Source of the DNA: Pseudodesulfovibrio mercurii
GTDB taxonomy: Bacteria; Desulfobacterota; Desulfovibrionia; Desulfovibrionales; Desulfovibrionaceae
Assembly (NCBI RefSeq): GCF_000189295.2
Contig: NC_016803.1
Location: forward strand, 3,240,001-3,272,000
Reading direction: 5' to 3'
Length of the DNA stretch: 32,000 nucleotides
Part shown: positions 7,995 to 28,217 of the stretch, piece after piece
Position numbering within the stretch: the first letter of the stretch is position 1
Layout of the letters: every line of letters begins with the position of its first letter
Position numbers and translations under genes: made by a program
Notes under the pieces: model-generated
What the model saw: the letters and a program-made list of their open reading frames with translations, nothing else
The model's database searches: none
Told to the model about the DNA's origin: nothing

Positions 7995-8023
7995 TTGACC
8001 TCGGCCTTCGGATGTTCTATCTA
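7995..8023 (+). promoter_or_regulatory. Candidate sigma70-type promoter for the greA leader
   Basis: TTGACC (7995-8000), a 17-nt spacer, then TATCTA (8018-8023). It lies in the divergent intergenic region between the ABC operon and greA. Motif match only. Confidence 0.4.
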
Positions 8024-8049
8024 ATGACCCGTCAGCTGGATTGACGAAT

Positions 8050-8096: not shown

Positions 8097-8138
8097 ACTG
8101 TCCGACTGTGAATTCATTTTTTAGTGAGGTTTTTGAAC

Positions 8139-8633: not shown

Positions 8634-8661
8634 CGTTCGTCCGCGTTCATCGCACAACCCC

Positions 8662-8692
8662 GCCCCGTCGTCTCCCGGCGACGGGGCGTTTT
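8662..8692 (+). terminator. Weak terminator-like hairpin after greA
   Basis: GCCCCGTCG (8662-8670) pairs with CGACGGGGC (8679-8687) around an 8-nt loop, followed by GTTTTC. The U-tract is short and the hairpin abuts the next ATG at 8697. Confidence 0.3.
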
Positions 8693-8696
8693 CATC

Positions 8697-10114: not shown

Positions 10115-10418
10115 GCCGCGTCCGCCGGTATCAGGTCGGAGCGCGCGGAATACCATTTTTGTGCTTTTTCTCCGGACCGGATCGCCGGGCCCGTCGCGCC
10201 CCTCGAAGTGTCCCAGGTTACGGCATTTTTTTCTTTGCATTTCCGTCAACCCCTTTCTGAACGATATGACATGGTTGTGAAAAAATATGATTTTTTTTGC
10301 AAAATTGTCATCGCGAAAGACCCAAAAAAGGGTATTAAACTACATTTTCGTAGTAAAATACGCCCCCGCAAGAAATGCGTTCCGCGTATCTGCCTGGATA
10401 TACGCTCTTTTCATTGTT

Positions 10419-14457: not shown

Positions 14458-14955
14458 CTATTGTATCTCGCACAGGTATTCCTGGATGGACTCGTTGCCC
14501 TTGGCGTCCGCGATCTTGATCTCGAGCTTGAACCGGCCCGAGGGGATCTCCACGTTGTCGGCCTTGATGGCGTTCCCTTCGAGATAGGGGGCCAGCCGGT
14601 CGGTCAGGTTCTTGGAGAACCAGCCCTTGCACGCCCGGATGTTAAGGGTCTTCATGTCCACCCGGGCCACGCCGTCCTGGAACAGGATGAGCAGGCGCAG
14701 CCTGGACGGCGACTCGATGACCAGCCCGTTGTCGGTGTCCTTGACCGAGGGCGTCTCGAACACGATCTTCGGGCCCACGCCGAAGCCGATGCCCTTGGAG
14801 GCCACGCCCTGCGCCCATTCGGCGTCGTCCAGGGCGAGGTCCTTGGCCTCTTCCGCCGAGAACAGGGTGAGGGGACCGGCGACGGAGATGGAAGGAAGGG
14901 CCAGCACAACGGCCAGCAGGCTCGCGGCCAGGAAAATATGGATTGCCTTGTTCAT
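14458..14955 (-). CDS. Secreted hypothetical protein (signal peptide, predicted beta-rich)
   Basis: MNKAIHIFLAASLLAVVLALPSISVAGP is a signal peptide. RBS GGAGGG lies 5 nt upstream and overlaps the stop of the preceding gene. GC3 is coding-like. I recognise no family. Confidence 0.7.
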   Translation of the reverse strand: MNKAIHIFLAASLLAVVLALPSISVAGPLTLFSAEEAKDLALDDAEWAQGVASKGIGFGVGPKIVFETPSVKDTDNGLVIESPSRLRLLILFQDGVARVDMKTLNIRACKGWFSKNLTDRLAPYLEGNAIKADNVEIPSGRFKLEIKIADAKGNESIQEYLCEIQ

Positions 14956-14965: not shown

Positions 14966-15448
14966 CTAGTTGTCGGATTGGGTCTGTTCCTTGCGCTCGA
15001 AGACCACCTTGTCGATGATCCCGTTGCCCTTCTGGTAGAAGACCAGCGCGTTGTAGTCCTCCACCGGGGAATACAGGGCGATGTCCTTGAGGTAGTCGTA
15101 GGCGGCCACGAGCATGGACAGGACCTCGGAGAAGACGCCCTTGTCCTGGCTCACGGGCACGAGCTTCACGCTCCCGCCGTACTCCGCGACCTTGGAAAAC
15201 CAGTTGTCCAGCCGCTTGGGGATGGAGTTCAGGGTGATGGCCGCCGGAAAGACCAGGGTCACCGCGGGGTAGTCCCCGGCCAGGCTGGCGGACAGCTGCT
15301 TGTCGAAACTCGCGGAGTCGAAGAACTCCACCTGTTCCAGGGGCTCGATGACGGCCGGATGCTTTTTGGGGGCGCAGGCGGCCAGCAGGGCGGCGCAGAG
15401 CAGGACGGCCGCGGCCAGGGACATGAATGTCTTCGTCGTATGGAACAT
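14966..15448 (-). CDS. Hypothetical lipoprotein
   Basis: Lipobox LLAACA (Cys in AALLAAC|APKK) follows a hydrophobic leader. GGAGGAG lies upstream of the ATG at 15448. The gene starts 50 nt downstream of the caspase gene stop. I recognise no family. Confidence 0.7.
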   Translation of the reverse strand: MFHTTKTFMSLAAAVLLCAALLAACAPKKHPAVIEPLEQVEFFDSASFDKQLSASLAGDYPAVTLVFPAAITLNSIPKRLDNWFSKVAEYGGSVKLVPVSQDKGVFSEVLSMLVAAYDYLKDIALYSPVEDYNALVFYQKGNGIIDKVVFERKEQTQSDN

Positions 15449-15498: not shown

Positions 15499-16890
15499 TT
15501 ACCTGATCTTGAGCAGGACGATGCCGGCCCCGTAGGGCTTGCTTTCGGGGCGGGCCGGTTGGGCCGGTTGCGCCGTTTCCGCTTCGGGCTTCTCCTGGGC
15601 GTCGATCACGACGAAGCCGCGCGTGGAGGCCTGGTCCATGGTCCGGAACGCGCCGTCCCCGTACCCCTGACGGTAGAAGTTCACCGGGAACGGGGAGTGG
15701 AAGACCGCGATGAGCGCCTTGCCCGCGGGCGGGGCGGCGGCCAGCTCGAAGGCGTCGCCCTGCGCGGGGATGGCCACGGTCAGGCCCGCCTTGACCAGGT
15801 TCTCGGGATGGAACTTGTTGGGGAAGAGGATGGTGGGCGCCTTGTCGCCGGGCTGGATGGTGACCACGTTGAGGTAGCCGTCGGTCCGGGGGGTGCAGGT
15901 GATGCGTAGCGGATCGCCGACCTTGAAGACCGTGCCGTTGGTCCCGACCTTGACGTCATAGGCGGCGTGGCCCGCGATCTTGCGGATCTGGGTGATCCAG
16001 TCCTCGGGCGCGGCCTCCTTCGGGACGAAGAGATTCTTTTCGTTGTGGGCGGCGTCGCCCACCAGGGCCGGGCTGTAGACCATGGCCGGTTCGGGCACGA
16101 CGTCCGCTATGTACCGGGTGGTCTCGGCGTAGAGCTTGGACATGTCCAGGCGCCGGTCCTTGGCCGCCTGCTCGACCGCCCGCTCGATACCCAGGGTGAA
16201 GAAGCTGCCCTTGGTGGAGGCCTGGGCCCGCTGGTTGTCCTGGGCGGCGCTCAGGGCCGAATAGTTGAGCGGCTCGGCCGTGTCCATGGACTTGTTGAAC
16301 AGGGGCAGGGACCGGCTGGCCCTCGGCATGCCCGGATATTCAAGGAACTTGGGCACGATGCCCGCGTGCCGGGCGGTCAGGCTCCGGGTGGCGGTGCCGC
16401 TGTGGCAGGCGTCGATGAGAATGAAGACGTTGGCGGAACGCATGCGCTTGAGCATGTCGCGGAACATGTCGTCCACCAGGACGTTCTTGAGCGTGTTCAC
16501 CCCGAGGGCCACGTCGTTGCAGACCAGGACCTCGTCCGCGTTGTCGGTTTCGTCCTTGTCCTTATCGTATATCTGCGAGCCGTGCCCGCTGAAATAGAAC
16601 AGGGCGCGTTCGTCGGGGCCCACGCCGGCGATGAGCCACTCGTCCACGGCGGCCTGGATGTTCTTGAGCGTGGCCTGGTCGTCCGTCAGGACCCTGATGT
16701 TTTCCGGCTTGTACCCGAGGGTCAGGGCGACCTTGCGCATGGTCTCGACATCCTTGTCGATACCGGGCAGGTCGATGCCCTTCATCCGGTATTTGCCGAT
16801 GCCGATGAGCAGGGCCTTGTCGGCTGCGTTGGCGGGTGTTGCGGGGAGGATCAGGAGGCAGAGAACAATGAAGAGAAGCAGTCGTTTCAT
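15499..16890 (-). CDS. Exported caspase-like peptidase (C14 family) with C-terminal DUF4384-like domain (paralogue 1)
   Basis: Start reassigned to MKRLLLFIVLCLLILPATPANA (signal peptide). Motifs: ALLIGIGKY, catalytic His in YFSGHGSQ, catalytic Cys in LIDACHSGT. The C-terminal VGDPLRITCTPRTDGYLNVVTIQPGDKAPTILFPNKF...AIPAQGDAFELAAAPPAGKALIAVF fits the DUF4384 pattern as I remember it. Confidence 0.9.
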   Translation of the reverse strand: MKRLLLFIVLCLLILPATPANAADKALLIGIGKYRMKGIDLPGIDKDVETMRKVALTLGYKPENIRVLTDDQATLKNIQAAVDEWLIAGVGPDERALFYFSGHGSQIYDKDKDETDNADEVLVCNDVALGVNTLKNVLVDDMFRDMLKRMRSANVFILIDACHSGTATRSLTARHAGIVPKFLEYPGMPRASRSLPLFNKSMDTAEPLNYSALSAAQDNQRAQASTKGSFFTLGIERAVEQAAKDRRLDMSKLYAETTRYIADVVPEPAMVYSPALVGDAAHNEKNLFVPKEAAPEDWITQIRKIAGHAAYDVKVGTNGTVFKVGDPLRITCTPRTDGYLNVVTIQPGDKAPTILFPNKFHPENLVKAGLTVAIPAQGDAFELAAAPPAGKALIAVFHSPFPVNFYRQGYGDGAFRTMDQASTRGFVVIDAQEKPEAETAQPAQPARPESKPYGAGIVLLKIR

Positions 16891-17087
16891 GGCGTGGTGG
16901 CCCTTTAAAAAATTGTTAACAAAAATAATTTCATAGAATGCATCAATAATCAATACCGCGTTGCTCGTCATAATGAGACGGACAGGTGAGGATTTTTTTC
17001 CGCAGGTGACCTTTTTCCCCACGGGTTGCGTAACGCGAGACAACCCGCTATCTCTACGGACGGGGAAAAACTGTCTGCAAATCAGGG
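16891..17087. promoter_or_regulatory. Divergent control region between the caspase-1 operon and the sigma operon
   Basis: An AT-rich stretch (16905-16960) stands out in a GC-rich genome. A direct repeat CAGGTGA-NN(N)-T5-7 occurs at 16983 and 17003, exactly 20 bp apart. An inverted repeat CGGGTTG-N12-CAACCCG lies at 17022-17047, 41 nt upstream of the sigma ATG. I could not assign any promoter hexamers with confidence. Confidence 0.3.
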
Positions 17088-17939
17088 ATGTTCACGCCTG
17101 TGAAGTGGAAAGACGAGATGTTGGCGAATTGGGAAAGGCTGGCCGCGTTGTCGCGCAGGCGCTTTTCCGACGAGAATCTGGCCGATGAGGCCCTGCTCTA
17201 CGTCTCGGGCGAGCTGGAGCGGGACGACTGGAAGCGGCTCAGGTCCTTCGAGGGGCGGTCCAGCTTCGGTTCGTACCTGCTGCACGTCGCCGCCCGGCTG
17301 CTGGAGGATTTTTCGCGGAAAAAGTTCGGCAGGGTCCGTCCCAACAAGTGGGTCCTTGAGCGGGGCGGCATCTGGCTGACCCTGTTCAGGATGCTCTGCC
17401 TGGAACGGCAGGACGGCGAGCGGGTGGCGGACGTCCTGGCGGCGGGCGCGCCCGGCGGGCGGTCCAGGGACTTTGTGCGCAGGGCCGTGGTGGACATCCG
17501 GGTGCACGTGCCCGACTGCGGCAGGTCCACCCTGCCCCTGGCCGCCGACGGAGTGTCCGTGGACGACCTGCCCGGCGACGGCCAAGCGGCCGGGACCGGC
17601 AATCCGGCAGCAGACCTGAGCGGACGGCAGCGGGAGAGCGTCCTGGCCAGCCTGTCCTGGATGGTGGGCGACGAACTCGCCCCGGAGAACGGGGCGGCCA
17701 CCCGCCTGGCGGACAAGGTCGCGGACGCGGGCCGGACCCTGCGGCTCGACGCGGAGGACCGGCTGTTCCTGAAGATGATCTACCGCGAGGGCATGAACGT
17801 CAGCGCGGCGGGCCGGATGCTCGAATGGTCGGCGTCCCGGTCGCACAGCCGGTTGAAGTCGCTGTTGCGGGAGCTCCGGGAGGCCTTTGACGGCGCGGGC
17901 ATCGGCGAGGAAATTTTCGCCCTGATAACGAATGCATAG
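17088..17939 (+). CDS. Divergent ECF-like sigma-70 family sigma factor with a long insert between regions 2 and 4
   Basis: Region-2-like: FEGRSSFGSYLLHVAARLLEDFSRKKFG. Region-4-like HTH: LDAEDRLFLKMIYREGMNVSAAGRMLEWSASRSHSRLKSLLRELREAF. About 100 aa separate them, making the protein (283 aa) longer than typical ECFs. An anti-sigma gene follows. An alternative start lies at 17118. Confidence 0.65.
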   Translation: MFTPVKWKDEMLANWERLAALSRRRFSDENLADEALLYVSGELERDDWKRLRSFEGRSSFGSYLLHVAARLLEDFSRKKFGRVRPNKWVLERGGIWLTLFRMLCLERQDGERVADVLAAGAPGGRSRDFVRRAVVDIRVHVPDCGRSTLPLAADGVSVDDLPGDGQAAGTGNPAADLSGRQRESVLASLSWMVGDELAPENGAATRLADKVADAGRTLRLDAEDRLFLKMIYREGMNVSAAGRMLEWSASRSHSRLKSLLRELREAFDGAGIGEEIFALITNA

Positions 17940-17946
17940 GACAAAG

Positions 17947-18843
17947 ATGCAGAGGACGAATCGGCATATGGCGCACCATCTGAGCGACGAACAACTGGCC
18001 GAACTGGGTCTGGCCGCGACGGAAGGAACCGGGCATCCCGGCCCCTGCCCGTCCGCCGAGGATCTGGCCGCACTGCGGGAGGGCCGCCTGGACGCGGCCC
18101 GCCGGGCCGAAATCCTGGCCCATCTCGACGGTTGCGCCGAATGCGTGGCCCGGTGGCTGGCCGTGTCGTCGGTGGACGCATCCTCGGAGGACGCGCCGGA
18201 GCGGGCCGTCCCGGCCCCCAGGGCCGTGTCGCCGGTCTTTGTCCGGACCGTGGCCGTGATTGCGGCCGTTGCCGCCTGCGTGTTTTTCGTCATCCGTCTC
18301 TTTCCCCCGAGCGGGGGCGGGCCGGACTTCGCGCGCTCCGTGGACGCCGGGTACCGGCTCGTGCTGGACGATCCCCGGTTGTACGCCGCCCTGAGCGGCC
18401 CGGTCCGGGAGCTGGCCGCGTCCGGCGGGGTGCGGTCCGCCGGGACCCCGGCCGAAGGCGCGTTCGAGGCCGGGTGGGCGGCGGGCCTGGCCGCGCTGGG
18501 CCGGGGCAGGGAAGGGGTTGCCGCGCCTTCCGGCAACGCGCGCGCGGAGTACGTCTTTGCGGCGGGACGGTGGAGCGTCCTGGTTCATGCGGCGCTGGAC
18601 GCGGAGGTCCCGTCCGGCGGGAATTTCTGGAAGGAGCAGGCGCGGACCGCCGGGCTGTTCCAGGAGCGGACGGCCGCGCTCGCGCCTGGGGACGAGACCC
18701 GGCACCGGGCCCTGTGGGGGGACCTGGCGGCGGTCCTGGACCGTCTGGCCGACGGTTCCGCCACGGCGCGGGACCGGGACCGGCTGTGCAGGCTCCTGGG
18801 CGGGCTCGGTCGGGTCATGGGGGAATCGGACCTCGGCGCCTGA
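17947..18843 (+). CDS. Zinc-binding (ZAS-type) anti-sigma factor, single-pass membrane protein with periplasmic domain
   Basis: HLDGCAECV matches the H-x3-C-x2-C motif. It is followed by a TM segment (VFVRTVAVIAAVAACVFFVI) and an Ala/Gly-rich extracytoplasmic domain of about 190 aa. In-frame starts exist at 17932, 17947 (AGGA 5 nt upstream) and 17968, so the exact start is uncertain. Confidence 0.7.
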   Translation: MQRTNRHMAHHLSDEQLAELGLAATEGTGHPGPCPSAEDLAALREGRLDAARRAEILAHLDGCAECVARWLAVSSVDASSEDAPERAVPAPRAVSPVFVRTVAVIAAVAACVFFVIRLFPPSGGGPDFARSVDAGYRLVLDDPRLYAALSGPVRELAASGGVRSAGTPAEGAFEAGWAAGLAALGRGREGVAAPSGNARAEYVFAAGRWSVLVHAALDAEVPSGGNFWKEQARTAGLFQERTAALAPGDETRHRALWGDLAAVLDRLADGSATARDRDRLCRLLGGLGRVMGESDLGA

Positions 18844-18877
18844 CGAAAAAACCGGGCCGCGTCCGTCTGACAATGTC

Positions 18878-21013
18878 ATGAACATCCACTTGCCCATCAT
18901 CCATCGTCCGAGGCCCGTCGCCGGGTGGCTGCCCGCCCTGGTCCCGGCATTGTTCCTGCTGCTGACGTCGGTCGCCTTCGGGGCGCAGAAGTACGCCCTG
19001 CTCATCGGCATCAACGACTATTCCCACACCGGCTTCCGCTCCCTGCGCGGGGCCAGGAACGACATCGACCTCATGCGCGGGGTGCTCGTCTCCCGCTTCG
19101 GGTTCGCGCCCGGGCATATCGTCCAGCTGGTGGACGGCCAGGCCACGCACACGGCCATCCGCGACGCCTTCCACCGCCTGCGGGACACGGTCGGTCCCGG
19201 AGATTTCGTCTACATCCACTATTCCGGCCACGGCTCCTCGGTCTGCGACGTGAGCGGCGACGAGGGACCCGGCGGGCTGGACTCCACCTGGGTCGCCTTC
19301 GGATCGAGGACCGGCGGCAAGGGCAAGGCCGGGCCCGTGGACTGCCGCCTGCTGCGCGAGCGGGCGGGGACCCTCCCCGCCTGGAGCGACGGCATCGACT
19401 CCTACGACATCCTGGACGACGAACTGAATGGCTGGCTGGTGGAGTTGGGCCGCGTCACGGACAACATCGTGTTCGTGTCCGATTCCTGCCACTCCGGCAC
19501 CGTGACCCGGAGCTTCGAGGCTCGGGCCACGCGCGGCCTGCCCCGCGATTTCCGGCCCTACGTGCCCGGCCGGATCGAGACCGGGACCCTGCGGGGCGTC
19601 CGGATCGGGGCCTGCCGGGACGACGAAAAGGCCGGGGAGTACCGCACCGGGGACAAGGTCTACGGCATGTTCACCTGGTTCTGGGCCAATGCCCTGATGG
19701 AGGTCGGGCCGGACGCCACCTGGCAGGACCTGGTCAAGCGGGCCTCCGCGCTCATCGGCTACGAGTACGCCGGGTATTCCAATCAGCACCCGCAGATCGA
19801 GGGCGGCCTGGACCGGGAGGTCTTCGGCGGCGGCGGGCGGGACCTGGACGACAGGGTGTCCGTGGCCGGAGTGGACGACGGCCTGGTGTCCCTCAATGCG
19901 GGCAGCCTGTCCGGAGTGACCGTCAACTCGCTCTACGTGGACACGTCCCGGGGGGGCGGAGCCGGGGAGCGCAGCGTGCGGATCGTCTCGGTGGAGCCGA
20001 CCATGAGCATCGGCGAGACCTCGGCGGACCTGAAGCCGGGGGACCTGCTGTCCCTGAAGCGGTTCTGGCCCGAAGCCTCCTCCCGGTCGATCTTCGTGCG
20101 CGCGGAGCTGCCCGGCGACGCCCTCTACGCGGCCATGGCCCGCGAGGCCGTGCGGAACATGCCGCAGTTCGAGCTCGCCGGGGACGAATCCTCGGCGGAC
20201 CTGATCCTGCACATCTTCCGGCCCGGCAGGGGGGCGGCCAAGGACGCCGCCCGGCAGGAAGGCCCGCCCGCATCGGACGAAAGCGCCCCGGTCCAGTGCT
20301 GGATTCTTTCCCCGGACGGGCGGCCCCTGGCCGAGGGCGGGCGCAGGCTCACCCTGGCCGTGACGCGGGACTGGGAGAAGCCCCTAGAGGATGCCCTGGA
20401 ACGGGTCTCCAGGGTGCGCCATCTGCTGACCCTCAAGTCGCCGCCGGGCGCGGCCCGGCCGGTGATCATGGAGATGACCATCTGGAAGCCCGCCGTTGCC
20501 GGGGCCACGGGCGAGATTCGGGAGATCGGCGGCAGGCGCTACGCCCGCTGGGGCAGCTTCGACACGGACGTTTCCGACACGGCCGTCCTGGCCGTGGGCG
20601 ACGTGCTGACGTTCGGCATGTACAACCAAAGCGATACGCCGTATTACTGCTATCTGATCGATATCACTGACGACGGCAGGATTCTGCCCTTCTACCCGAC
20701 CGAGGAGAAGGGCATGGAATCGGGCAAGGTGCTGCCGGGGCAGACCCTGGACACGGCGGACGACCTTTCCCTGGAAATGGACCGGTCCGGGCGCGAATAC
20801 ATCCAGCTGATCGTCAGCCGGGACCCGGTGGACATCGGCCTGCTCAACCAGCGCCGGGCCGGGTCTTCCGGCAAGGACCTGGGCTTTGCCGGGAGCTTCC
20901 TGCTGCCCGCCTCCGGCCGTGGCAAGGACGTGGACCGGAGCGTCCCCCCGGCGCAGTGGGCAACGGAAAAACTGGTCCTGGACATAGCCGCCCGGGGCGG
21001 GAGCAACTCATGA
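18878..21013 (+). CDS. Exported caspase-like peptidase (C14 family) with middle domain and C-terminal DUF4384-like domain (paralogue 2)
   Basis: The real start is the ATG at 18878 (MNIHLPIIHRPRPVAGWLPALVPALFLLLTSVAFGAQ, a signal/anchor). Motifs: ALLIGINDY, catalytic His in HYSGHGSS, catalytic Cys in VSDSCHSGT. The C-terminal VGDVLTFGMYNQSDTPYYCYLIDITDDGRILPFYPTEE...YIQLIVSRDP is DUF4384-like. The upstream 120 codons of the track ORF are a shadow of the anti-sigma gene. Confidence 0.9.
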   Translation: MNIHLPIIHRPRPVAGWLPALVPALFLLLTSVAFGAQKYALLIGINDYSHTGFRSLRGARNDIDLMRGVLVSRFGFAPGHIVQLVDGQATHTAIRDAFHRLRDTVGPGDFVYIHYSGHGSSVCDVSGDEGPGGLDSTWVAFGSRTGGKGKAGPVDCRLLRERAGTLPAWSDGIDSYDILDDELNGWLVELGRVTDNIVFVSDSCHSGTVTRSFEARATRGLPRDFRPYVPGRIETGTLRGVRIGACRDDEKAGEYRTGDKVYGMFTWFWANALMEVGPDATWQDLVKRASALIGYEYAGYSNQHPQIEGGLDREVFGGGGRDLDDRVSVAGVDDGLVSLNAGSLSGVTVNSLYVDTSRGGGAGERSVRIVSVEPTMSIGETSADLKPGDLLSLKRFWPEASSRSIFVRAELPGDALYAAMAREAVRNMPQFELAGDESSADLILHIFRPGRGAAKDAARQEGPPASDESAPVQCWILSPDGRPLAEGGRRLTLAVTRDWEKPLEDALERVSRVRHLLTLKSPPGAARPVIMEMTIWKPAVAGATGEIREIGGRRYARWGSFDTDVSDTAVLAVGDVLTFGMYNQSDTPYYCYLIDITDDGRILPFYPTEEKGMESGKVLPGQTLDTADDLSLEMDRSGREYIQLIVSRDPVDIGLLNQRRAGSSGKDLGFAGSFLLPASGRGKDVDRSVPPAQWATEKLVLDIAARGGSNS

Positions 21014-21645
21014 ACAGCGTGAAATGGTGTCTTGTCGTCGTATTGAGCCTGTTGTTCGCCGCGCCATGCGGCGCGGGCGAGCGCGTGAACCGCAGCGCCG
21101 AGGACGGGGCCAAGTCGCCCCGGGTGGTGATGATCGAGCAATACGCCCTGTCCGTGTCCATGGCCGACTACGGCGAGAGTTCCGGCAATCCGGTGGTCCT
21201 CCTGGCCGCTGCCCAGATTATGAAGGACGCCGGGCTCGGTGCCGAGGCGGACCGGGACGCGGCGCGCATCCTGGAGTCGGCCATGCGGCGCGCGGGCACG
21301 AACCTCAAGCTGCGCTCCCTGATCACCGCCGAGATGCGGCGGCAGGGCATGCGCGGCAATGTCCAGGGCCCGGCCAAGAACGTCAACCGGCTGGAGCCGA
21401 GCGGCGCGGCCGAGCACGACGTCCGCTTCATGGCCGGGGAACGGGCCGCGGTCTACGTCAAGAGCCGTGGCGGCCGCTTCAAGGTCTCGGTCTACGACGA
21501 AAACGGCGGCCTGGTGGCCGACCGGGACGGCGTGGACAGGGAGTGCATGGTCCAGTGGACGCCCGACTGGGACGGGCTGTTCACCATCAAGGTGGCCAAC
21601 CGGGAACAGGGGGCCGAACTGGCCTACCTCATGCTGACCAACTAG
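21010..21645 (+). CDS. Secreted hypothetical protein with a possible pre-peptidase-C-terminal-like beta-sandwich
   Basis: The ATG overlaps the caspase stop (ATGA at 21010-21013). Signal peptide: MNSVKWCLVVVLSLLFAAPCGAG. The C-terminal FMAGERAAVYVKSRGGRFKVSVYDENGGLVADRDG...WDGLFTIKVANRE resembles PPC-type domains. That resemblance is a low-confidence judgement by eye. Confidence 0.65.
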   Translation: MNSVKWCLVVVLSLLFAAPCGAGERVNRSAEDGAKSPRVVMIEQYALSVSMADYGESSGNPVVLLAAAQIMKDAGLGAEADRDAARILESAMRRAGTNLKLRSLITAEMRRQGMRGNVQGPAKNVNRLEPSGAAEHDVRFMAGERAAVYVKSRGGRFKVSVYDENGGLVADRDGVDRECMVQWTPDWDGLFTIKVANREQGAELAYLMLTN

Positions 21646-21662
21646 CGCCCACGGAGAGAGAC

Positions 21663-22187
21663 ATGTTTCGGAAATTCTGCATCGGGGTTTGTCTGGCATT
21701 CGCGGCGGTCGCCCTGGCCGGGGTCGCCCTGGCCGGGGAGGTGATCGACAGCGACACCCTGGTCCGGCAGCTGGAGGACGGCGGGAGCGGCGGCATGCGC
21801 ACGCGCGGCTTCACGGTCAACAAGGCCGCGGCCGAGACGCCCAGGCCCTCGGCGACCGTCTACATCTATTTCGCCACCAACAGCGCGGTCATCACCGGCG
21901 AGCAATCCTTCAGGCAGCTCGACGAGCTGGGCCGGGCCCTGACCTCAAGCGCCCTGCGCGGGGCGCGCATGGAGATCGGCGGCCATACGGACAGCGTGGG
22001 CAGCGATGCCTACAACCTGCAATTGTCCAGGAAGCGGGCCCAGGCCGTGAGCGACTATCTCAACAAGAAGTATGGGTTCACGGCTGCGGCCGTCACGGGC
22101 TACGGCGAGTCCGCCCCCGTGGCCTCCAACGAGACCGCCGAGGGGCGGGCCGGGAACCGCCGGGTGGTCATCACCCGCCTGGATTAG
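21663..22187 (+). CDS. OmpA/MotB-family peptidoglycan-binding protein (exported)
   Basis: Signal peptide MFRKFCIGVCLAFAAVALAGVALAGE. OmpA_C motifs: IYFATNSAVI, IGGHTDSVGSDAYNLQLSRKRAQAV, GYGESAPV, NRRVVI. Confidence 0.9.
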   Translation: MFRKFCIGVCLAFAAVALAGVALAGEVIDSDTLVRQLEDGGSGGMRTRGFTVNKAAAETPRPSATVYIYFATNSAVITGEQSFRQLDELGRALTSSALRGARMEIGGHTDSVGSDAYNLQLSRKRAQAVSDYLNKKYGFTAAAVTGYGESAPVASNETAEGRAGNRRVVITRLD

Positions 22188-22206
22188 GCTCGGGGAAGTC
22201 TGCGCC

Positions 22207-24279
22207 GTGAAATTCAAGTGGAAGCTCCTGCTGGTCCTGCTGGCCGTGGCCCTGGTGCCCCTGCTGGTCATGCGGGTGGTCATCCAGGACGCGGACGAGG
22301 AGTCCGCCCGTGTCCTGGCAGAGCGGTTCGGCCTGGGCGTGTCCGTGGGCCGGGACGCGGACGACGACCTGTCCATGCCCCTTGAGGACATCCTCGTGGC
22401 CCGGACCGAATCCGAACTGCTCTCCGTGGCCCGACGGTCCGCCCGGACGGCCGGGGACCGCTTCCGGCTGCTCGCCCAGGTGCAGCGGGAACAGCTGCGC
22501 CTGCTGGCCGGAGACGCGCCCCAGGATACGCCGCCCGAGCGGACCGGGGCCGGGAGCGGCTACTGGGCCTGGACCGGGGACGGCAAGCGGTCCCGGCTGG
22601 AGGTGGATCTCTCCTCGCTCACCACGCTCTCCCCGGAAGGCGGCGTCCCTGCGGCCCCGGACGGGTTTCTCGGGACGGCGCTCCCCGCCCTCGAATTCGG
22701 CAAGCGCTCCCTGCCCCGGCTGGTCCTGTGGCAGTGGGCCCGGTCCACGGATGGGACCGTCTGCCTGTATCCCGGACTGCCGGGCAACGGGGGCGCGCTC
22801 GTCCGGGAGTTCGCCGCCGTGGGCAGGGAGGCGGTCGGCACACCGGTTACGGTCCTGGCCAGCCCGGCCACGCACCAGCTGATGCTGCTCTCGACCCTGC
22901 GGGGCCGGACCCTGTCATCCCCCACGGTCACGGTGGCGGCCGCCATGGACGACCTGTTCGACAGCGCGGACGCGGTGGGGTTGCCCGCCGGCATCCAGTG
23001 GTTTTTCGTCCAGGCGGACGGGGAGGTGGTGCGCCTGCTCGCCTCGCGCACGCCCGGCGACGATCCCGGCTCCCTGTACTGGGCCTCGGGCGACCCCCTG
23101 CCCGACCTCGGGCCTGACCGGGGCGGCCCGCTCCGGGCCGGTCTCCGGGACGGCGGCCACGGGTCGTTTCGCCGGGGCGAAGGGGACGCCGACCATCTCT
23201 GGATCTTTGCCGGGCTGGGGGTGCGCGGCCTGGGCGTGGTCCTGCGCCTGTCCGTGTCCTCCCTGCTCGGGCAGTCCCTCCAGGCCGAGCGGTTCGTCGG
23301 CGAGACCATCCGGGTCCGGCACCGGACCATGATGCTGGTCATCGCGGGCCTGGGGCTGCTGACCCTGCTCGCGGCCCTGGCCCTGTCGAGCACCATGACC
23401 CGGCGCATGGAGCGGCTGGCCGAGGCGTTCAGGCAGGTGGCGGCGGGCGATTTTTCGGTCCGGGTGCGGGTGCGCGGCCGGGACGAGCTGGCCCAGCTGG
23501 GCGCGACCTTCGACGAGATGGTCCCGGCCCTGGACGAGCAGGTGCGCATGAAGCGGGACATGGCCGTGGCCCGTGGCATTCAGCAGTGCCTCATGCCCGA
23601 GGACGCGCCGTCCGCGCCGGGGCTGGACGTGGCCGGAATGTCCATCCCGCACGACGAGACCGGCGGGGATTACTATGATTTCTTCCGCTTCGACAACGGC
23701 GAGGTCGGGGCCGTGGTCGGGGACGTCACCGGACACGGCATCCCGGCGGCCCTGCTCATGGCCAGCTCGCGGGCCTTCCTCCGCGCCAACCTCGATGGGG
23801 GGGCGGATGCGGGACAGGTCCTGACCCGCGCCAACGAGCTGCTTTCGCGGGACATCCAGACCACGGGCCGGTCCATGACCGCGTTCCTGTGCGCCGTGGA
23901 CCCTGCCCGCCGGATGATCCGCTGGTCCCGCGCCGGACACGATCCGGCCATCGTCTACCTGCCCGGCAGCGGCGCCTTCGAGGAACTGGCCGGGGACAGC
24001 GGGCTGCCGCTGGGCGTCATGGACGGGATGGAATATGTGGAGGAGCGGCGGGAACTGCCCGAGGGCGCCGTGGTCTTCTTCGGCACGGACGGGGTCTGGG
24101 AGACCCATGGCCGGGACGGGGAGCTGTTCGGCAAGGACCGGGTCAGGGCGATCCTCCGGGAGAACGCGGACCGTTCCGCCGGGGCCATCGCCGACGTGAT
24201 CCTGTCCTCGGTCCGGGCCTTCGCCGGTGACGACGGGGTCGAGGACGACCTGACCCTGATCGTGCTCAGGCTGGTCTAG
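22207..24279 (+). CDS. Membrane sensor PP2C-type (SpoIIE/RsbU-like) serine phosphatase with periplasmic domain and HAMP
   Basis: GTG start at 22207 (VKFKWKLLLVLLAVALVPLLV is TM1). A periplasmic region of about 370 aa leads to TM2 (MMLVIAGLGLLTLLAALALS) and a HAMP domain (FRQVAAGDFSVRVRVRGRDELAQLGATFDEM). PP2C motifs: ARGIQQCLMP, GGDYYDF, VVGDVTGHGIPAALLMA, FGTDGVWE, DDLTLIVL. Confidence 0.9.
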   Translation: MKFKWKLLLVLLAVALVPLLVMRVVIQDADEESARVLAERFGLGVSVGRDADDDLSMPLEDILVARTESELLSVARRSARTAGDRFRLLAQVQREQLRLLAGDAPQDTPPERTGAGSGYWAWTGDGKRSRLEVDLSSLTTLSPEGGVPAAPDGFLGTALPALEFGKRSLPRLVLWQWARSTDGTVCLYPGLPGNGGALVREFAAVGREAVGTPVTVLASPATHQLMLLSTLRGRTLSSPTVTVAAAMDDLFDSADAVGLPAGIQWFFVQADGEVVRLLASRTPGDDPGSLYWASGDPLPDLGPDRGGPLRAGLRDGGHGSFRRGEGDADHLWIFAGLGVRGLGVVLRLSVSSLLGQSLQAERFVGETIRVRHRTMMLVIAGLGLLTLLAALALSSTMTRRMERLAEAFRQVAAGDFSVRVRVRGRDELAQLGATFDEMVPALDEQVRMKRDMAVARGIQQCLMPEDAPSAPGLDVAGMSIPHDETGGDYYDFFRFDNGEVGAVVGDVTGHGIPAALLMASSRAFLRANLDGGADAGQVLTRANELLSRDIQTTGRSMTAFLCAVDPARRMIRWSRAGHDPAIVYLPGSGAFEELAGDSGLPLGVMDGMEYVEERRELPEGAVVFFGTDGVWETHGRDGELFGKDRVRAILRENADRSAGAIADVILSSVRAFAGDDGVEDDLTLIVLRLV

Positions 24280-25941
24280 CTATTTGCCCATGTATTCGTC
24301 CAGCGCCTGGTTCACGCTCTCTTTGAGGAAGAACAGGTAGCGGGTCACCGGATAGTAGCTCCCCCGCGATTCCTTCAGCGTGAAGGTCTTCAACGTGTCC
24401 TTTTTCGCATCGTAGAAGTTGCACAGGACGTATATTTGATTCGAGGTGTTCAGGGTGCTCAGGTAGGTCGACACGGCCATCAGGGTGTCGGCGTGCAGCT
24501 GAACCGCCATCTGCCTGAGGATATTGGTGTCGGGGGGCCGGGAGGCCCCGCCGGACCACAGGATCGCCTCCGCGTTCGGGGACAGGGTATAGGGATGCGC
24601 CGGCGAATCCCCGTCTCCGGCGCAAAAGACGGAAAGGACGTCCTTTCTCTCGGCCAGGACGGAGAGCAGCTTTTCCCGTCCCTTCACCTCCCAGTCGCGC
24701 CGCTTGTATTTGTAGGTCCAGGCAAAGGCCATGGGCGCCACAGAAAGGACGAGCCTGCCGTTGGCGGCGCTCAGGGCTTTTTGCCTGGCGGACAGGGGAT
24801 CGACGTCGGTATGGACGATGTCCGATCCGCCTGAAACGATCCGGTTCTGCTGCAATGCGGCCACCTGTTGCCGCATGGCTTCCAACTGGGCCTTGAGCTC
24901 CTCGTCGGTCTGGCCGGATTGCGGGGCCGGGACGGGCTGCGGCCGGGTCTCGGCCTGTTCCTGCATGGCGGCCATCTGCTGCTGCACGGCCGCGAGCTGG
25001 GCCTTGAGCTCCTCGTTGGAATCGTCGGGCTGCCGCGTCTGGACCAGTTCGGCGTTCTGCCGGGCCTGCTCCTGGAGCGCCGCCATCTGCTGTTGCATGG
25101 CCAGGAGCTGCGCCTTGAGCGCCTCGGTCTCGGGGGTGACGGCCGGGGCGGGCGGGGGCGTCGGCGCGGCGACCGGTTCCGGTTTCTTCTCACGGAAATA
25201 GAACTTGCCGATCAGGGACGAGGATTCCCACGGCGTCTGGCGACCGCCGGTGTCCCGGATCACGCCGCGCCGGACCTGCATGAAGGTGTCGTAGATGTCC
25301 AGGCCGGGGGTGTTCATGGCCGCGAGCAGGTTCTTGGTGTAGACCCCGTTGCGTCCCTCCCCGTCGGCCGCCACCGAGCCCGGAGCCGTGGCGTAGGCCA
25401 TGATGGACCCGGTGGGCGCGTCCATGCGGGCCAGGCCGGTGGTCTCGGAGCGCATGGACCGGGCAAAGGGGTTGTTGCGGCAGGCGTCCAGGATGATGAT
25501 GTTCATCTGGTTGCCCGCCAGCTTCAGGTGATCCAGGATGCGGCCCGCCGAGACCGCCTCATAGGGCACGTCCGCCTCGGTCTCGATGTCCGCGTCCACC
25601 GGGATGAGGTAGTTCTCCCCGTTCACCTGGATGCCGTGCCCGGCGAAATAGAAGAGGCCCACGCCGCCGTCCGCCAGCTGCCTGGACAGCTTGCGCACGG
25701 CGTTCTCCATCTGGCGCCGGGTGCCGTCGGTCAGGAGCGTGACCCGGAAGCCGAGTCCCTCGAGTTCCCTGCCGACGTCCGTGGCGTCGTGGACGGGGTT
25801 GGCCAGGGGCATGCCGGGGTAGGCGGAATTGCCGATGACCAGGGCGGTTTTCTGGGGAGCGGCGGCCCTGGCGGGCGCGAGAAGGAGCAGGGTTGTCGCC
25901 AACAGCGAGACGACGATGGCGATGGGGGTTCTGGTGTGCAC
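24280..25941 (-). CDS. Exported caspase-like peptidase (C14) with Pro-rich linker, 3 x 37-aa coiled-coil repeat and unknown C-terminal domain (paralogue 3)
   Basis: GTG start at 25941 (GGAG 6 nt upstream), with signal peptide TPIAIVVSLLATTLLLLAPARA. Motifs: ALVIGNSAY, catalytic His in YFAGHGIQ, catalytic Cys in ILDACRNNPF. Then a KKPEPVAAPTPPPAPAVTPE linker, three EELKAQLxAxQQQxAAxQEQ repeats, and about 190 aa with no family I recognise. Confidence 0.9.
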   Translation of the reverse strand: MHTRTPIAIVVSLLATTLLLLAPARAAAPQKTALVIGNSAYPGMPLANPVHDATDVGRELEGLGFRVTLLTDGTRRQMENAVRKLSRQLADGGVGLFYFAGHGIQVNGENYLIPVDADIETEADVPYEAVSAGRILDHLKLAGNQMNIIILDACRNNPFARSMRSETTGLARMDAPTGSIMAYATAPGSVAADGEGRNGVYTKNLLAAMNTPGLDIYDTFMQVRRGVIRDTGGRQTPWESSSLIGKFYFREKKPEPVAAPTPPPAPAVTPETEALKAQLLAMQQQMAALQEQARQNAELVQTRQPDDSNEELKAQLAAVQQQMAAMQEQAETRPQPVPAPQSGQTDEELKAQLEAMRQQVAALQQNRIVSGGSDIVHTDVDPLSARQKALSAANGRLVLSVAPMAFAWTYKYKRRDWEVKGREKLLSVLAERKDVLSVFCAGDGDSPAHPYTLSPNAEAILWSGGASRPPDTNILRQMAVQLHADTLMAVSTYLSTLNTSNQIYVLCNFYDAKKDTLKTFTLKESRGSYYPVTRYLFFLKESVNQALDEYMGK

Positions 25942-25991
25942 GGTAAACTCCGGGGACAGGGTGAGACTCGGTGGCTCGGCGGCAGGCCGTG

Positions 25992-26020
25992 AACATATCA
26001 ACAAGCGCCAACTTGTTCAA
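25992..26020 (-). promoter_or_regulatory. Candidate sigma70-type promoter for caspase paralogue 3, overlapping a short palindrome
   Basis: The minus strand reads TTGAAC (26020-26015), a 17-nt spacer, then TATGTT (25997-25992). The spacer contains AACAAG-N8-CTTGTT. This would place the TSS about 45 nt upstream of the GTG at 25941 and downstream of the track's ATG at 26004. Confidence 0.3.
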
Positions 26021-26231: not shown

Positions 26232-26663
26232 TTATTCGCCCGATATCTTGAGGGATTCGGCCTGGGAGCCGTCGTCGAGCCATTCCAGCTCGATCTCGCA
26301 TTTGGCCTTGTCCTTTTTGCGGGCCAGCTTGAGCTCCACCTGCATGGTCTCGGGCACGCCGAGGACCAGGGTGCCGCCCTCGTTCTCGGCGCGGATGACG
26401 CCGGATTCGATGGAGTCGGCCAGGTCCTTGAGGTAGGCGACCACCTGGGCCGTGTCCATGGTCTGTTCGATCTTGATCTTGCCTTTGCCCATCGTGGTCT
26501 CCTCGTTGTCGGTCGCGGCCGGGCGGAACAGGCCGGTGCGCGGTCCGGCCGTGTCCGCCCGCGGGGCGGGTTGCGTGGTTTCGGGGGCCGGGCCGGAGGC
26601 CTCGGGGGTCGCGGCGGGCGTGACCCACTCAAGAGGGTTGGTCCCGAGTCTCTCGTCGCTCAT
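26232..26663 (-). CDS. Amphi-Trp domain protein with Pro/Thr/Ala-rich N-terminal extension
   Basis: KIKIEQTMDTAQVVAYLKDLADSIESGVIRAENEGGTLVLGVPETMQVELKLARKKDKAKCEIELEWLD matches my memory of the amphi-Trp domain: alternating-charge strands and a conserved Trp in an ElEW motif. The ATG at 26663 overlaps the ParA stop (ATGA), and the 57-codon extension has high GC3. An alternative internal ATG at 26492 has a strong GAGGAG RBS. Confidence 0.75.
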   Translation of the reverse strand: MSDERLGTNPLEWVTPAATPEASGPAPETTQPAPRADTAGPRTGLFRPAATDNEETTMGKGKIKIEQTMDTAQVVAYLKDLADSIESGVIRAENEGGTLVLGVPETMQVELKLARKKDKAKCEIELEWLDDGSQAESLKISGE

Positions 26664-27415
26664 GGGGCACCTCTGCGGAGCAGTTCCAGGGCCAGGTTCC
26701 GGTAGTCGGCGGCCCCGTGGCTGCGGGGTTTGTAGGTGAAGATGTCCCGGCCGAAACTGGGGGCCTCGGCCAGGGAGATGTTGTCGCGGATGGTCGTATC
26801 CAGCAGGGCGTCGCCGAAGTGGTCCTTGATCTTGCGCCGGATCTCCCGGTTGAGCTTGCGGGTGCGTTGGTAGCGGGTCATGAGGATGCCGGACAGGGTG
26901 AGATGCGGGTTCCAGCCCTCGCGGATGGCCTTGACCGTCTCCATGAGCTTGCCCAGGGATTGCAGGGCCAGGAATTCCGGCTGCACCGGCACGAGCAGTT
27001 CGTTCGCCGCGACCATGGCGTTCAGTGTGAGCATGCCGAGGTTGGGCGGGCAGTCGATGATGGCGAAGTCGTACCCTCCGGTCCCGGCCAGGGCGTCGCG
27101 CAGCCGGGTCTCGCGGTTCCCGGCCGAAGCCAGGTCCACCTCGGTCCCGGCCAGGGCCACGGAGGCGGGCACCACATGCAGTCCGCCGACCTCCATGGTC
27201 ACGCTGTCCAGGGGACACTCGCGCATCAGGGCCGCGCCCATGGTCCGGGGCAGCTCGTGGGCCATGATGCCCAGGGAATAGGTCAGATGCGCCTGGGGGT
27301 CGAGGTCCAGCAGCAGGACGCGCCGGTCCTGCCGGGCCAGGGCGGCCCCCAGGTTCACGGCGGTGGACGTCTTGCCCACGCCCCCCTTCTGGTTCAGTAC
27401 GGCGATGATGCGCAT
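26660..27415 (-). CDS. ParA/Soj/MinD-family P-loop ATPase (orphan, no ParB seen)
   Basis: Deviant Walker A in IIAVLNQKGGVGKTSTAVNLG, plus LLLDLDPQAHLT, Walker B DFAIIDCPP, and LVPVQPEFLALQSL. Confidence 0.95.
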   Translation of the reverse strand: MRIIAVLNQKGGVGKTSTAVNLGAALARQDRRVLLLDLDPQAHLTYSLGIMAHELPRTMGAALMRECPLDSVTMEVGGLHVVPASVALAGTEVDLASAGNRETRLRDALAGTGGYDFAIIDCPPNLGMLTLNAMVAANELLVPVQPEFLALQSLGKLMETVKAIREGWNPHLTLSGILMTRYQRTRKLNREIRRKIKDHFGDALLDTTIRDNISLAEAPSFGRDIFTYKPRSHGAADYRNLALELLRRGAP

Positions 27416-27427
27416 GCCGGTCCCGGT

Positions 27428-27613
27428 CTAGTGCGTGGTGTGCAGGGTGATCTTCTTGATGACGTACTCCCGGCCGTAGCGGCAGGTCAGGGAGTTGATC
27501 CGTTCGAGAATGCGGTCCCGCTCCTCGTCCACCATGTCGGGGTTCTCCTCTTCGATGCCGAACAGGTCGGCCACCTCATTCCATTCGAAACATTGATCTT
27601 GCGTTTCAGTCAT
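27428..27613 (-). CDS. Small acidic hypothetical protein (61 aa)
   Basis: MTETQDQCFEWNEVADLFGIEEENPDMVDEERDRILERINSLTCRYGREYVIKKITLHTTH. RBS GGAG lies 7 nt upstream of the ATG at 27613. The gene ends 12 nt before the ParA start. I recognise no family, and it is too short for certainty. Confidence 0.5.
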   Translation of the reverse strand: MTETQDQCFEWNEVADLFGIEEENPDMVDEERDRILERINSLTCRYGREYVIKKITLHTTH

Positions 27614-27645
27614 TGTTTTTCTCCGCAATGGGCTCGTGCTCGTTG

Positions 27646-28191
27646 TTATTTCTTGTCGGCGGACTTGGCCGACGTTTTCTTGGCGATGGATTTCTTGGAT
27701 GCCGCCTTTTTTGCCGCTTTTTTCCCGTCCGGGTCCTTTTTGGCCGCCGCCTTTTTCGCTTCGAATTTGGCCTCGGATTTGGCCTCGGATTCGGGCCTGG
27801 CTTCGGTGGTGGCCGGGACCCTGGCCGGTTCGGTGGTGGCCGGGGCCATTGCCGGAATCTTGGCGGCCGGGGCCTGGGCCGCGGGCTTCATGGCCGGGGC
27901 GCCGCCCTCGGGCTGGATCGCCGGTGCGGGCGCGGGCTCGGCGTCGCCGATCCGGAGTTCGTCCCCTCCGGCCTCGGTCCAGCTCAGCTCGAAGCCGATC
28001 TTCTGCTTGTCGTTCTTGACTTTGGCCTCCACCTTGACGGCCACCTGGGCGCCGGGCGTCATGACCACGTGCTCCCCGCCGCTCTCCACCACGATGGTGC
28101 CGGACCGGAAGCTCCTGGCCAGGTCTTCGATGTAGGACACGGCGTCCTTGTACTCCAGGACCTTCTTGACACTGATCTTTTGCTTATCCAC
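27646..28191 (-). CDS. Amphi-Trp domain protein with Pro/Ala-rich linker and Lys/Ala-rich (histone H1-like) C-terminal tail
   Basis: GTG start at 28191 (GGAGG 8 nt upstream). The domain KISVKKVLEYKDAVSYIEDLARSFRSGTIVVESGGEHVVMTPGAQVAVKVEAKVKNDKQKIGFELSWTE parallels the other amphi-Trp protein. The tail reads ESEAKSEAKFEAKKAAAKKDPDGKKAAKKAASKKSIAKKTSAKSADKK. Confidence 0.75.
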   Translation of the reverse strand: MDKQKISVKKVLEYKDAVSYIEDLARSFRSGTIVVESGGEHVVMTPGAQVAVKVEAKVKNDKQKIGFELSWTEAGGDELRIGDAEPAPAPAIQPEGGAPAMKPAAQAPAAKIPAMAPATTEPARVPATTEARPESEAKSEAKFEAKKAAAKKDPDGKKAAKKAASKKSIAKKTSAKSADKK

Positions 28192-28217
28192 GTTCACAAC
28201 CTCCTTTGGGTTGGCCG

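Follow-up and report, generated by a model that had tools for sequence, protein, structure and literature searches.

A predicted sigma/anti-sigma pair followed by an exported caspase: a candidate cell-envelope signalling module in Pseudodesulfovibrio mercurii

To our knowledge, the substrate or physiological role is known for almost none of the abundant bacterial caspase homologues, and the exported ones are essentially unstudied. A gene cluster of the sulfate-reducing bacterium Pseudodesulfovibrio mercurii raises the question of what an exported caspase does when its gene directly follows those of a predicted sigma factor and an anti-sigma factor bound to the membrane. The cluster occupies positions 17088-24279 of the window, the whole 32,000-nucleotide (nt) stretch of DNA that was analysed, and consists of six genes, g1 to g6, all on the plus strand. 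We propose that it encodes a cell-envelope signalling module, the core of which would be formed by the sigma factor g1, the anti-sigma factor g2, and the exported protease g3, probably together with g4, acting on g2. We assign this reading, which is drawn from sequence comparisons, a probability of about 0.45, slightly short of even. The genes are:

17088-17939, plus strand: g1, predicted divergent sigma-70-family protein, DND132_2914
17947-18843, plus strand: g2, predicted single-pass anti-sigma factor of the zinc-associated anti-sigma (ZAS) type
18878-21013, plus strand: g3, exported caspase with a Peptidase_C14 domain and a DUF4384-like domain
21010-21645, plus strand: g4, exported protein that combines a four-helix bundle with a PPC-type beta-sandwich
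21663-22187, plus strand: g5, exported OmpA-like peptidoglycan-binding protein
22207-24279, plus strand: g6, sensor with two transmembrane segments, a HAMP domain, and a PP2C (SpoIIE-type) phosphatase

The listing of open reading frames (ORFs) and the junctions, which were read directly, exactly reproduce the six co-directional genes and the junctions given in an earlier, sequence-only reading of this DNA. The domain assignments of that reading hold for all six proteins, with a DUF4384 match in g3 that is sub-threshold but credible. The g1 and g2 genes are separated by 7 nt, and an alternative ATG of g2 at 17932 would overlap g1. The spacer between g2 and g3 is 34 nt long, that between g4 and g5 is 17 nt, with the sequence GGAGAG preceding the g5 start, and that between g5 and g6, which starts with GTG, is 19 nt. 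The g3 and g4 genes are joined by an ATGA overlap, through which g4 is predicted to be translationally coupled to g3. In a scan for sigma-70 promoters and terminators, the matches of which stayed at chance level, no terminator-like sites exceeding chance level were found inside the cluster, and the cluster is operon-like.

The g2 protein can be divided into a cytoplasmic ZAS domain, one transmembrane helix (residues ~97-118, within a hydrophobic segment spanning residues 92-123), and a periplasmic sensor domain. The ZAS motif is complete, with C34 and H59-x3-C63-x2-C66, and the zf-HC2 match (E 7e-4, 20.2 bits) is slightly under the cut-off of 22.2 bits. The zinc ligands, the position right after the sigma gene, and the membrane anchor are those of a class I or ZAS anti-sigma factor; some members of the sensor subfamily, such as those at loci L087 and L043, are missing the ligands. 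The periplasmic sensor domain of ~175 residues is characterized by the motifs AF.AG, GRW.VL, and FW.EQ, and belongs to a previously unnamed family. An iterated profile of this domain converges on a distinct subfamily, for which no Pfam family and no PDB sequence match were found.

The position after an anti-sigma factor with this sensor is almost always filled by a protease, the class of which differs between lineages. Loci with g2-type sensors carry C14 caspases in the window, L084, and L081, TPR-CHAT together with CHASE2 proteins in L025, L043, and L087/88, and M48-TPR proteins in L012 and L025. The C14, M48-TPR, and TPR-CHAT proteases in this position all have signal peptides. A metagenome scan that used a four-member alignment as the query added nine more loci in which an exported M48(-TPR) gene lies directly after the anti-sigma gene. 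An exported protease is present in 12 of 14 dereplicated sensor-type groups and in 3 of 81 other sigma loci (Fisher p=7e-11, which is an upper bound on the significance because the comparison loci devoid of a protease are phylogenetically clustered). No C14, CHAT, or M48 genes occur in the 1.06 Mb surrounding the other sigma loci. The class of the protease is swapped while the sensor domain is kept, which speaks for a functional link between the protease and the ectodomain of the anti-sigma factor; a site-1 cut by the protease is the most economical form of such a coupling. The sequence-only reading had suggested the caspase as the site-1 protease of the anti-sigma factor; the comparison, with the 12 of 14 lineages and the locus described below, supports caspase action on the anti-sigma factor, but does not prove the cut. 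The module is locally duplicated at L025, where one contig has two 85%-identical copies of the g2-type anti-sigma gene (3337-4290 and 11205-12158), each accompanied by a CHASE2 gene of its own, besides M48-TPR and TPR-CHAT genes.

The association of a caspase with an anti-sigma factor is also found outside the g2 family. At L106, the gene of a zf-HC2 anti-sigma factor with a DUF4384 ectodomain (7079-8011) overlaps by 11 nt with the start of a gene for a g3-type C14-DUF4384 caspase (8001-10154). Both proteins carry DUF4384, and the anti-sigma factor and the protease therefore share a domain. A 268-residue protein encoded upstream of this anti-sigma factor was considered as a member of the g1 family and rejected, as the hhalign probability was 5%; the protein has a weak generic match to sigma-70.

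The extent to which the cluster is conserved distinguishes its core from its additions. The sequence-only reading had set gene-order conservation beyond close relatives as a check on its proposal; the six-gene order is conserved within the genus only, whereas the order of sigma factor, anti-sigma factor, and caspase reaches further. In L084, from a Pseudodesulfovibrio metagenome-assembled genome, the full block is kept and g1 is 82% identical. One strand of L084 carries MscS, two small genes, and a caspase gene, and the other carries the sigma, anti-sigma, caspase, g4, OmpA, and HAMP-PP2C genes, followed by a convergent caspase gene. The 50%-identical relative at L081 has kept everything up to the caspase in the g3 position, including the order sigma, anti-sigma, and caspase; an OmpA-like gene follows directly after the caspase gene, g4 is missing, and the contig ends there. 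Locus L104, from Fundidesulfovibrio magnetotacticus, was found from the caspase side. It encodes a sigma factor of the g1 family (E=4.9e-80) and an anti-sigma factor of the g2 family (1.6e-27), and continues in the same order with a g3-type caspase and a g4-family protein (4.6e-66), with trypsin, C14, and two TPR-CHAT genes where the window has those for OmpA and PP2C. The orders in L084, L081, and L104 therefore define the conserved unit as sigma factor, anti-sigma factor, and caspase, usually with g4. The six-gene composition that the sequence-only reading had treated as a unit does not hold as such, with OmpA and HAMP-PP2C genes both present in L084 only and an OmpA-like gene in L081.

In the wider family, the g1-g2 pair alone is retained in 80 species-representative genomes with g1 homologues (30-42% identity, mostly Desulfobulbales). 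A g2 homologue is encoded immediately downstream of the sigma gene in at least 60 of these 80 loci, and the pair is conserved in ~100 loci overall. The recurrent neighbours in the 80 loci are the housekeeping genes pyrF, oadA/G, and purL, and a divergent YfbK-like vWA gene. The Desulfobulbales loci (L001-L080) encode an anti-sigma factor with a different periplasmic sensor, and a divergently encoded, exported YfbK-like vWA protein of ~590 residues, for example in L019 (8062-9957, minus strand).

An ordinary g1-g2 pair could merely share its strand in this genus with independent envelope genes g3 to g6. Such a composite would explain why the OmpA and HAMP-PP2C genes stand beside the pair in close relatives only, why g4 is missing from L081, and why the six-gene order was not found among the 80 species-representative sigma loci. 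However, it conflicts with the recurrence of the g1-g2-g3 order in two further lineages at 35-50% identity, with the ATGA overlap of g3 and g4 and the adjacency of g4-family and caspase genes in all four contexts examined, and with an association of the protease that tracks the sensor type. We consider the composite very improbable for the cluster as a whole and viable for g5 and g6 only. Both are predicted to be co-transcribed, genus-specific additions, that is, lineage-specific accessories that are not part of the conserved core.

In the proposed mechanism, the cytoplasmic ZAS domain of g2 would keep g1 at the membrane at rest. An envelope signal would activate or recruit the periplasmic caspase g3, for which its DUF4384-like domain and the PPC-sandwich protein g4 may serve as binding or regulatory parts. 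The caspase would then cut the periplasmic sensor domain of g2 in a site-1-type reaction, intramembrane proteolysis would follow and release g1, and g1 would transcribe its own operon and probably also the two flanking caspase operons, one of which is separated from g1 by the following region:

16891-17087, no strand: A+T-rich divergent intergenic region

The 10-nt element GAGACGGACA (16975-16984) in this region is invariant in the alignment of the three syntenic loci, which are those of the window, L084, and L081. It is not enriched in the window, where 5 matches compare with 2.7 expected. We only infer that the element may be a promoter or operator.

Several observations weigh against the action of the caspase on g2, in addition to the clustering that limits the statistical comparison. 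Two lineages with the same sensor, L086 and L003, have no protease nearby. In about 60 Desulfobulbales loci, the same sigma family comes with a different sensor and with a divergent vWA protein in place of a protease, and a dedicated protease is therefore not obligatory for the sigma family. A cleavage motif shared by the juxtamembrane regions of the sensor-type anti-sigma factors is not visible, and a sigma-dependent promoter motif was not established by the three-locus intergenic alignment and the enrichment count in the window. The case for the caspase cutting g2 is wholly comparative, and a protease co-transcribed behind an autoregulated sigma factor is equally expected if the protease is an output of that sigma factor.

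According to this alternative, the pair senses its signal otherwise, by the ZAS zinc site or the sensor alone, and induces a programme of periplasmic proteolysis or remodelling, consisting of three caspases, a PPC protein, a peptidoglycan anchor, and a phosphatase sensor, as sigmaE induces BepA and DegP in E. coli. The location of the proteases downstream in the transcription unit of the sigma factor is typical of autoregulated operons of the extracytoplasmic function (ECF) type. The commonest partner in sister lineages, M48-TPR, has the architecture of the envelope quality-control protease BepA, which belongs to the sigmaE regulon. Furthermore, the protease-rich clusters of L104 and L105, with C14, trypsin, M48, and TPR-CHAT genes, reach well past the position next to the anti-sigma gene. 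The g3-type caspases, with at least 576 clusters of homologues, are also far more widespread than the sigma family with ~60 clusters, so most of them work without the sigma factor. However, the alternative leaves unexplained why the presence of a protease tracks the sensor type and not the sigma family as a whole, and why the second, unrelated anti-sigma factor at L106 shares DUF4384 with the adjoining caspase. We regard proteases that are simply outputs as the main alternative, less likely than the preferred reading. The two roles are compatible, as positive feedback would make the protease both input and output.

The arrays of L104 and L105 (Fundidesulfovibrio and Geobacter hydrogenophilus) are long and co-directional, and combine g3-type caspases with other exported proteases; C14, trypsin, M48-TPR, two TPR-CHAT genes, and FGE-sulfatase are represented. 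Their organization suggests multi-protease periplasmic systems that are much larger than the window cluster.

The predicted sigma factor of the module is very divergent. The g1 protein matches DND132_2914, a database entry labelled hypothetical, with 100% identity. The entry has 273 residues, as expected if translation began with the ATG at 17118 rather than at 17088. The annotation probably lacks the first 10 codons, because Trp at residue 7 of the longer ORF is conserved across the family. There are no Pfam matches of g1 at E<=0.01; the sub-threshold matches are to region 2 (13.3 bits, cut-off 24) and region 4 (15.7 bits, cut-off 24.1) of sigma-70, and the match to TIGR02937 (E=3.8e-8, 33.1 bits) is under the cut-off of 42.9 bits. 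The predicted structure of g1 has a predicted local distance difference test (pLDDT) score of 81, and its best 50 Foldseek matches in the PDB are all sigma-factor chains. These matches are weak globally (E 0.009-1, template modelling score 0.2-0.4), with full-length alignments to SigB, SigD, and sigma28. The best matches of the g1 family profile are to the group-3 sigma factors FliA and WhiG (~2e-4; FliA region 4 E=1.9e-4).

According to the family alignment, g1 belongs to a coherent family of proteins with 265-315 residues, and can be divided into an ECF-like sigma2 domain, a conserved helical insert of ~60 residues, a disordered linker, and a sigma4 domain; ~95 extra residues separate the sigma2 and sigma4 matches. 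The cysteines C104 and C144 of the insert, located in LLCLER and IPxCG motifs, are invariant in 28 diverse members. They may provide the sigma factor with a redox or metal site of its own, beside the zinc site of its ZAS partner. The sigma fold and the region-4 helix-turn-helix, which is recognisable by profile, make g1 a predicted member of the sigma-70 superfamily, as the sequence-only reading had proposed. However, the ECF part of that call has to be dropped: g1 is not a canonical two-domain ECF sigma factor, because it fails the curated thresholds, has an extra conserved domain, and matches the FliA and WhiG profiles best. It neither reaches the Sigma70_r2 and r4 thresholds nor has the compact sigma2-linker-sigma4 layout of ECF group 4. 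Taken jointly, the findings may describe a new class of sigma/anti-sigma switch, in which an anti-sigma factor with a new sensor is followed by a dedicated, exported, and interchangeable site-1 protease, and in which the sigma factor belongs to a three-domain clade with a possible cysteine-based redox or metal site; we put this forward tentatively.

The Peptidase_C14 domain of g3 was identified with 50 bits (4e-13, cut-off 21.4). As in the two flanking caspases, which likewise score above the C14 threshold, its catalytic His and Cys residues are present in SGHG and D[SA]C motifs. The dyad of g3 is intact, with HYSGHG at residue 114 and DSCHSG at residue 202, and the protein has a signal peptide. 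The C14 domain is connected to the C-terminal DUF4384-like domain by a middle region of ~230 residues, for which a relaxed Pfam scan gave no match. DUF4384 (PF14326) scores 21-24.7 bits in g3, under the cut-off of 27 bits, and the assignment is credible because many full-length g3 homologues carry PF14326. The closest solved relatives of the catalytic domain are GSU0716 of Geobacter sulfurreducens (PDB 3bij) and the metacaspases and orthocaspases, with which g3 shares the conserved SGHG/DSCHSG dyad. GSU0716 is a stand-alone domain of 285 residues with no assigned function, whereas g3 additionally has the signal peptide, an insert of ~35 residues between His and Cys, the middle region, and the DUF4384-like domain.

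The site-1 proteases known so far, namely DegS, Prc/CtpA, PrsW, and signal peptidase, belong to the serine or metallo classes, and their genes usually lie elsewhere in the genome. In cascades of the sigmaE-RseA-DegS-RseP type, a site-1 and then a site-2 protease remove a membrane anti-sigma factor, and the operon is autoregulated (reviewed in PMC8103513 and PMC8999054). The system described here resembles these cascades in having a membrane anti-sigma factor with a periplasmic domain. It differs from them in that a cysteine protease of the caspase family, or an M48 or CHAT protease in the sister lineages, is encoded directly after the anti-sigma factor.

The sequence-only reading knew of no characterized system with this composition, and we likewise found none with the same composition in the literature or in PADLOC-DB 2.0; three precedents that were not known to it stand close to parts of the module. 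The nearest is DdvA of the Myxococcus xanthus DdvS/DdvA pair, a ZAS anti-sigma factor with a fused periplasmic TPR-CHAT protease, for which self-cleavage before RseP was proposed (PMC11506125). DdvA and the g2/g3 proteins have in common a cytoplasmic CHCC/ZAS domain, a single transmembrane helix, and a periplasmic clan-CD protease with a His/Cys dyad. In DdvA the protease is fused to the anti-sigma factor and is of the CHAT type with TPR, whereas g3 is a separate signal-peptide-bearing C14 protein with a DUF4384-like domain, encoded by the next gene. Furthermore, g2 has its own novel sensor of ~175 residues and no fused TPR-CHAT, and is thus not of the DdvA type; g1, in contrast to DdvS, is not a canonical ECF sigma factor, and there are no defence genes near the window cluster. 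That a caspase-fold periplasmic protease serves a sigma/anti-sigma pair is already established, in the fused form, by DdvA.

The second precedent is the type III-E Craspase, whose caspase-like component Csx29 cuts Csx30, a protein that binds RpoE; the C-terminal domains of Csx30 fall into classes, one of which is DUF4384 (bioRxiv 10.1101/2022.08.17.504292). A caspase-like protease thus cuts a protein holding an ECF sigma factor, and DUF4384 is also found on the upstream caspase, on the anti-sigma factor of L106, and, as a sub-threshold match, on g3. However, Craspase is cytoplasmic, RNA-guided, and requires Cas7-11, and its module comprises Csx29 (TPR-CHAT), Csx30, Csx31, and RpoE. The proteins of the window are exported, their membrane ZAS anti-sigma factor is unrelated to Csx30, and no cas genes accompany them, which places the cluster outside the Craspase group. 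Neither cas nor TPR-CHAT genes were found among the scanned window ORFs, and none were called in L084.

The third precedent comprises neighbourhoods of caspases and ECF sigma factors that were proposed computationally to be conflict systems (PMC8195603). They share with the window cluster the linkage of caspase and sigma genes and a proteolytic step proposed to trigger transcription. In these systems, the caspases are fused to EACC2 and variable sensors as part of conflict systems, whereas the window cluster has no EACC, TRADD-N, or DUF1822 domains, and the NCBIfam EACC1-type caspase model was matched far under its cut-off. In the literature, we found no paper on this composition, on the sigma clade, on the sensor domain, or on the g4 family, and DUF4384 is mentioned in passing only. 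Contexts with caspase, CHAT, or M48 genes go unmentioned in the main text of the paper that re-classified the ECF sigma factors.

These precedents bear on the alternative, also raised by the sequence-only reading, that the cluster is a conflict or programmed-cell-death system in which envelope damage or a phage activates the periplasmic caspases, and these in turn kill the cell, arrest it, or switch on a defence regulon. The DdvA/DdvS pair controls defence by the cyclic-oligonucleotide-based antiphage signalling system (CBASS) and by clustered regularly interspaced short palindromic repeats (CRISPR) (PMC11506125), and the caspase-ECF neighbourhoods just described point in the same direction. 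The g3-type caspases are frequent in filamentous and giant bacteria, such as Desulfonema, Thiomargarita, and Parabeggiatoa, a sigma factor of the family adjoins TPR-S/MAP3K_TRAF_bd-type genes at L082, and the C14 domains match the PADLOC "caspase" model. However, no defined PADLOC-DB 2.0 system was matched; the only matches are to the generic caspase and ZorB (MotB-like, OmpA-domain) models, with none for g1, g2, g4, and g6, and the composition is not that of a known defence system. No relatives of g1 were found in 2.9 million viral contigs. The block shows no composition anomaly, and its chromosomal neighbourhood, which includes the genes of MscS, glutamine synthetase III, and GreA, is stably syntenic in several species. 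NTPase, nuclease, and pore-forming effectors are not present, and the proteases are all exported, unlike the cytoplasmic caspase effectors described to date. The cell-death idea has gained no positive evidence from these searches, and we consider it distinctly unlikely. At L082 (1-9869 and 10001-12081), the sigma gene is followed by that of an 82-residue soluble zf-HC2 protein, and the adjoining divergent cluster encodes HD, RyR/TPR-S/MAP3K_TRAF_bd, GAF, Peptidase_S8, DUF4349, TPR-CHAT, and OmpA proteins and resembles a conflict system.

The preferred reading, in which g3 acts on g2, makes the anti-sigma ectodomain a testable candidate substrate of a caspase, with sigma-dependent transcription as the readout. 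P. mercurii is a cultivable, genetically tractable, mercury-methylating bacterium, and the proposal of a substrate and a readout for exported bacterial caspases in such an organism gives the module real value for experiments. If the reading is true, dedicated proteases of three catalytic classes can drive the regulated proteolysis of anti-sigma factors, which would generalise the single fused example of DdvA, and transcription in Pseudodesulfovibrio and Fundidesulfovibrio would be controlled by a periplasmic caspase pathway. Two large families, the exported C14-DUF4384 caspases and their PPC-sandwich partners of the g4 type (~400 clusters at 50% identity), would also gain a first function, and three sizeable families that lack annotation, namely the sigma clade, the g4 family, and the family of the sensor domain, would receive names and functions. 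Even with proteases that are outputs, the locus still defines a sigma-controlled programme of periplasmic caspases.

The g4 protein consists of a signal peptide, a predicted four-helix bundle, and a beta-sandwich of the PPC/collagen-binding type, according to the structure model and Foldseek. The description "beta-sandwich-like" in the sequence-only reading is right for the C-terminal half, and the N-terminal part is the helical bundle. The g4 family has 397 representative clusters at 50% identity (E<=1e-30) and no Pfam model, and it was a full-length family member that adjoined the C14 gene in each of the four contexts mentioned above. Distant g4 homologues contain the motif GDGD.D(L/I)D(L/I).(V/L)YDENG, which resembles the calcium-binding site of PPC-type domains and has degenerated to SRGGRFKVSVYDENG in the Pseudodesulfovibrio proteins.

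The OmpA domain of g5 (PF00691) was identified with 68.8 bits (5e-19, cut-off 27.2). The peptidoglycan-binding motif TD..G...N..LS..RA is present as GHTDSVGSDAYNLQLSRKRA, and g5 is thus OmpA-like in both score and motif. The gene is present in L084, L081 has an N-terminally similar gene, and L104 has none. A tripartite signalling system of the YfiBNR type formed by g4, g5, and g6 was considered and rejected, as g4 has no DUF4154/YfiR match and is built of the helical bundle and the PPC sandwich. The match of g5 to the YfiB model reaches 91 bits, with a cut-off of 128, and there is no convincing lipobox.

In g6, the transmembrane segments 1-30 and 372-398 bracket a periplasmic domain of ~340 residues, for which a relaxed Pfam scan gave no match. 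They are accompanied by HAMP (3e-13) and SpoIIE/PP2C (9e-48, 163 bits) domains, the latter with the four metal-binding motifs GGDYYD, GDVTGHG, TDG, and DDLT intact. The catalytic motifs are those of a partner-switching phosphatase, but the neighbouring STAS and RsbW-type partners of such a module are not present: neither gene was found among the scanned window ORFs or within 10 kb on either side in the syntenic L084, in agreement with the sequence-only reading. The g6 gene stands beside the module only in Pseudodesulfovibrio. This narrow distribution weakens the idea that PP2C provides a second input, and nothing links PP2C to the sigma switch.

The sequence-only reading described the cluster without the two exported caspase genes that flank it. 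The genes neighbouring the cluster are:

14458-14955, minus strand: exported protein of 165 residues and no known family, with an N-terminal signal-like hydrophobic segment; last gene of the upstream caspase operon
14966-15448, minus strand: predicted lipoprotein of 160 residues with an LAAC lipobox (from sequence and hydropathy)
15499-16890, minus strand: upstream exported caspase with C14 and DUF4384 domains, divergent from g1, likely start at the ATG at 16890
24280-26004, minus strand: downstream exported caspase with a C14 domain, a coiled coil, and a C-terminal domain of no known family, convergent with g6

The upstream caspase has C14 (7.6e-19, 68.7 bits) and DUF4384 (1e-17) domains in Pfam, and with 64.4 bits over a cut-off of 27 it is a clear member of the DUF4384 family. 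It has the signal peptide MKRLLLFIVLCLLILPATPANA and an intact FSGHG/DACHSG dyad, and is kept in L081 and L084. Beyond it are the genes of the two small exported proteins, which are kept at the same position in L081 and L084 and gave no Pfam family even in relaxed scans, and then that of the MscS channel. The C14 domain of the downstream caspase has the highest score of the three (1.9e-42, 146 bits); the dyad and a signal peptide are present, and the gene is kept in L084. A relaxed Pfam scan of its C-terminus gave no match. The stop codons of g6 and the downstream caspase adjoin with a 0-nt spacer (24277-24282), and there is no terminator-like site between the two genes.

Further downstream, on the minus strand (26232-28647), the genes of two Amphi-Trp proteins (26232-27218 and 27646-28647) flank that of a ParA/MinD-like ATPase (26660-27415). 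Both Amphi-Trp ORFs are probably called too long at the 5' end. In L084, too, a ParA-like gene comes after an Amphi-Trp gene.

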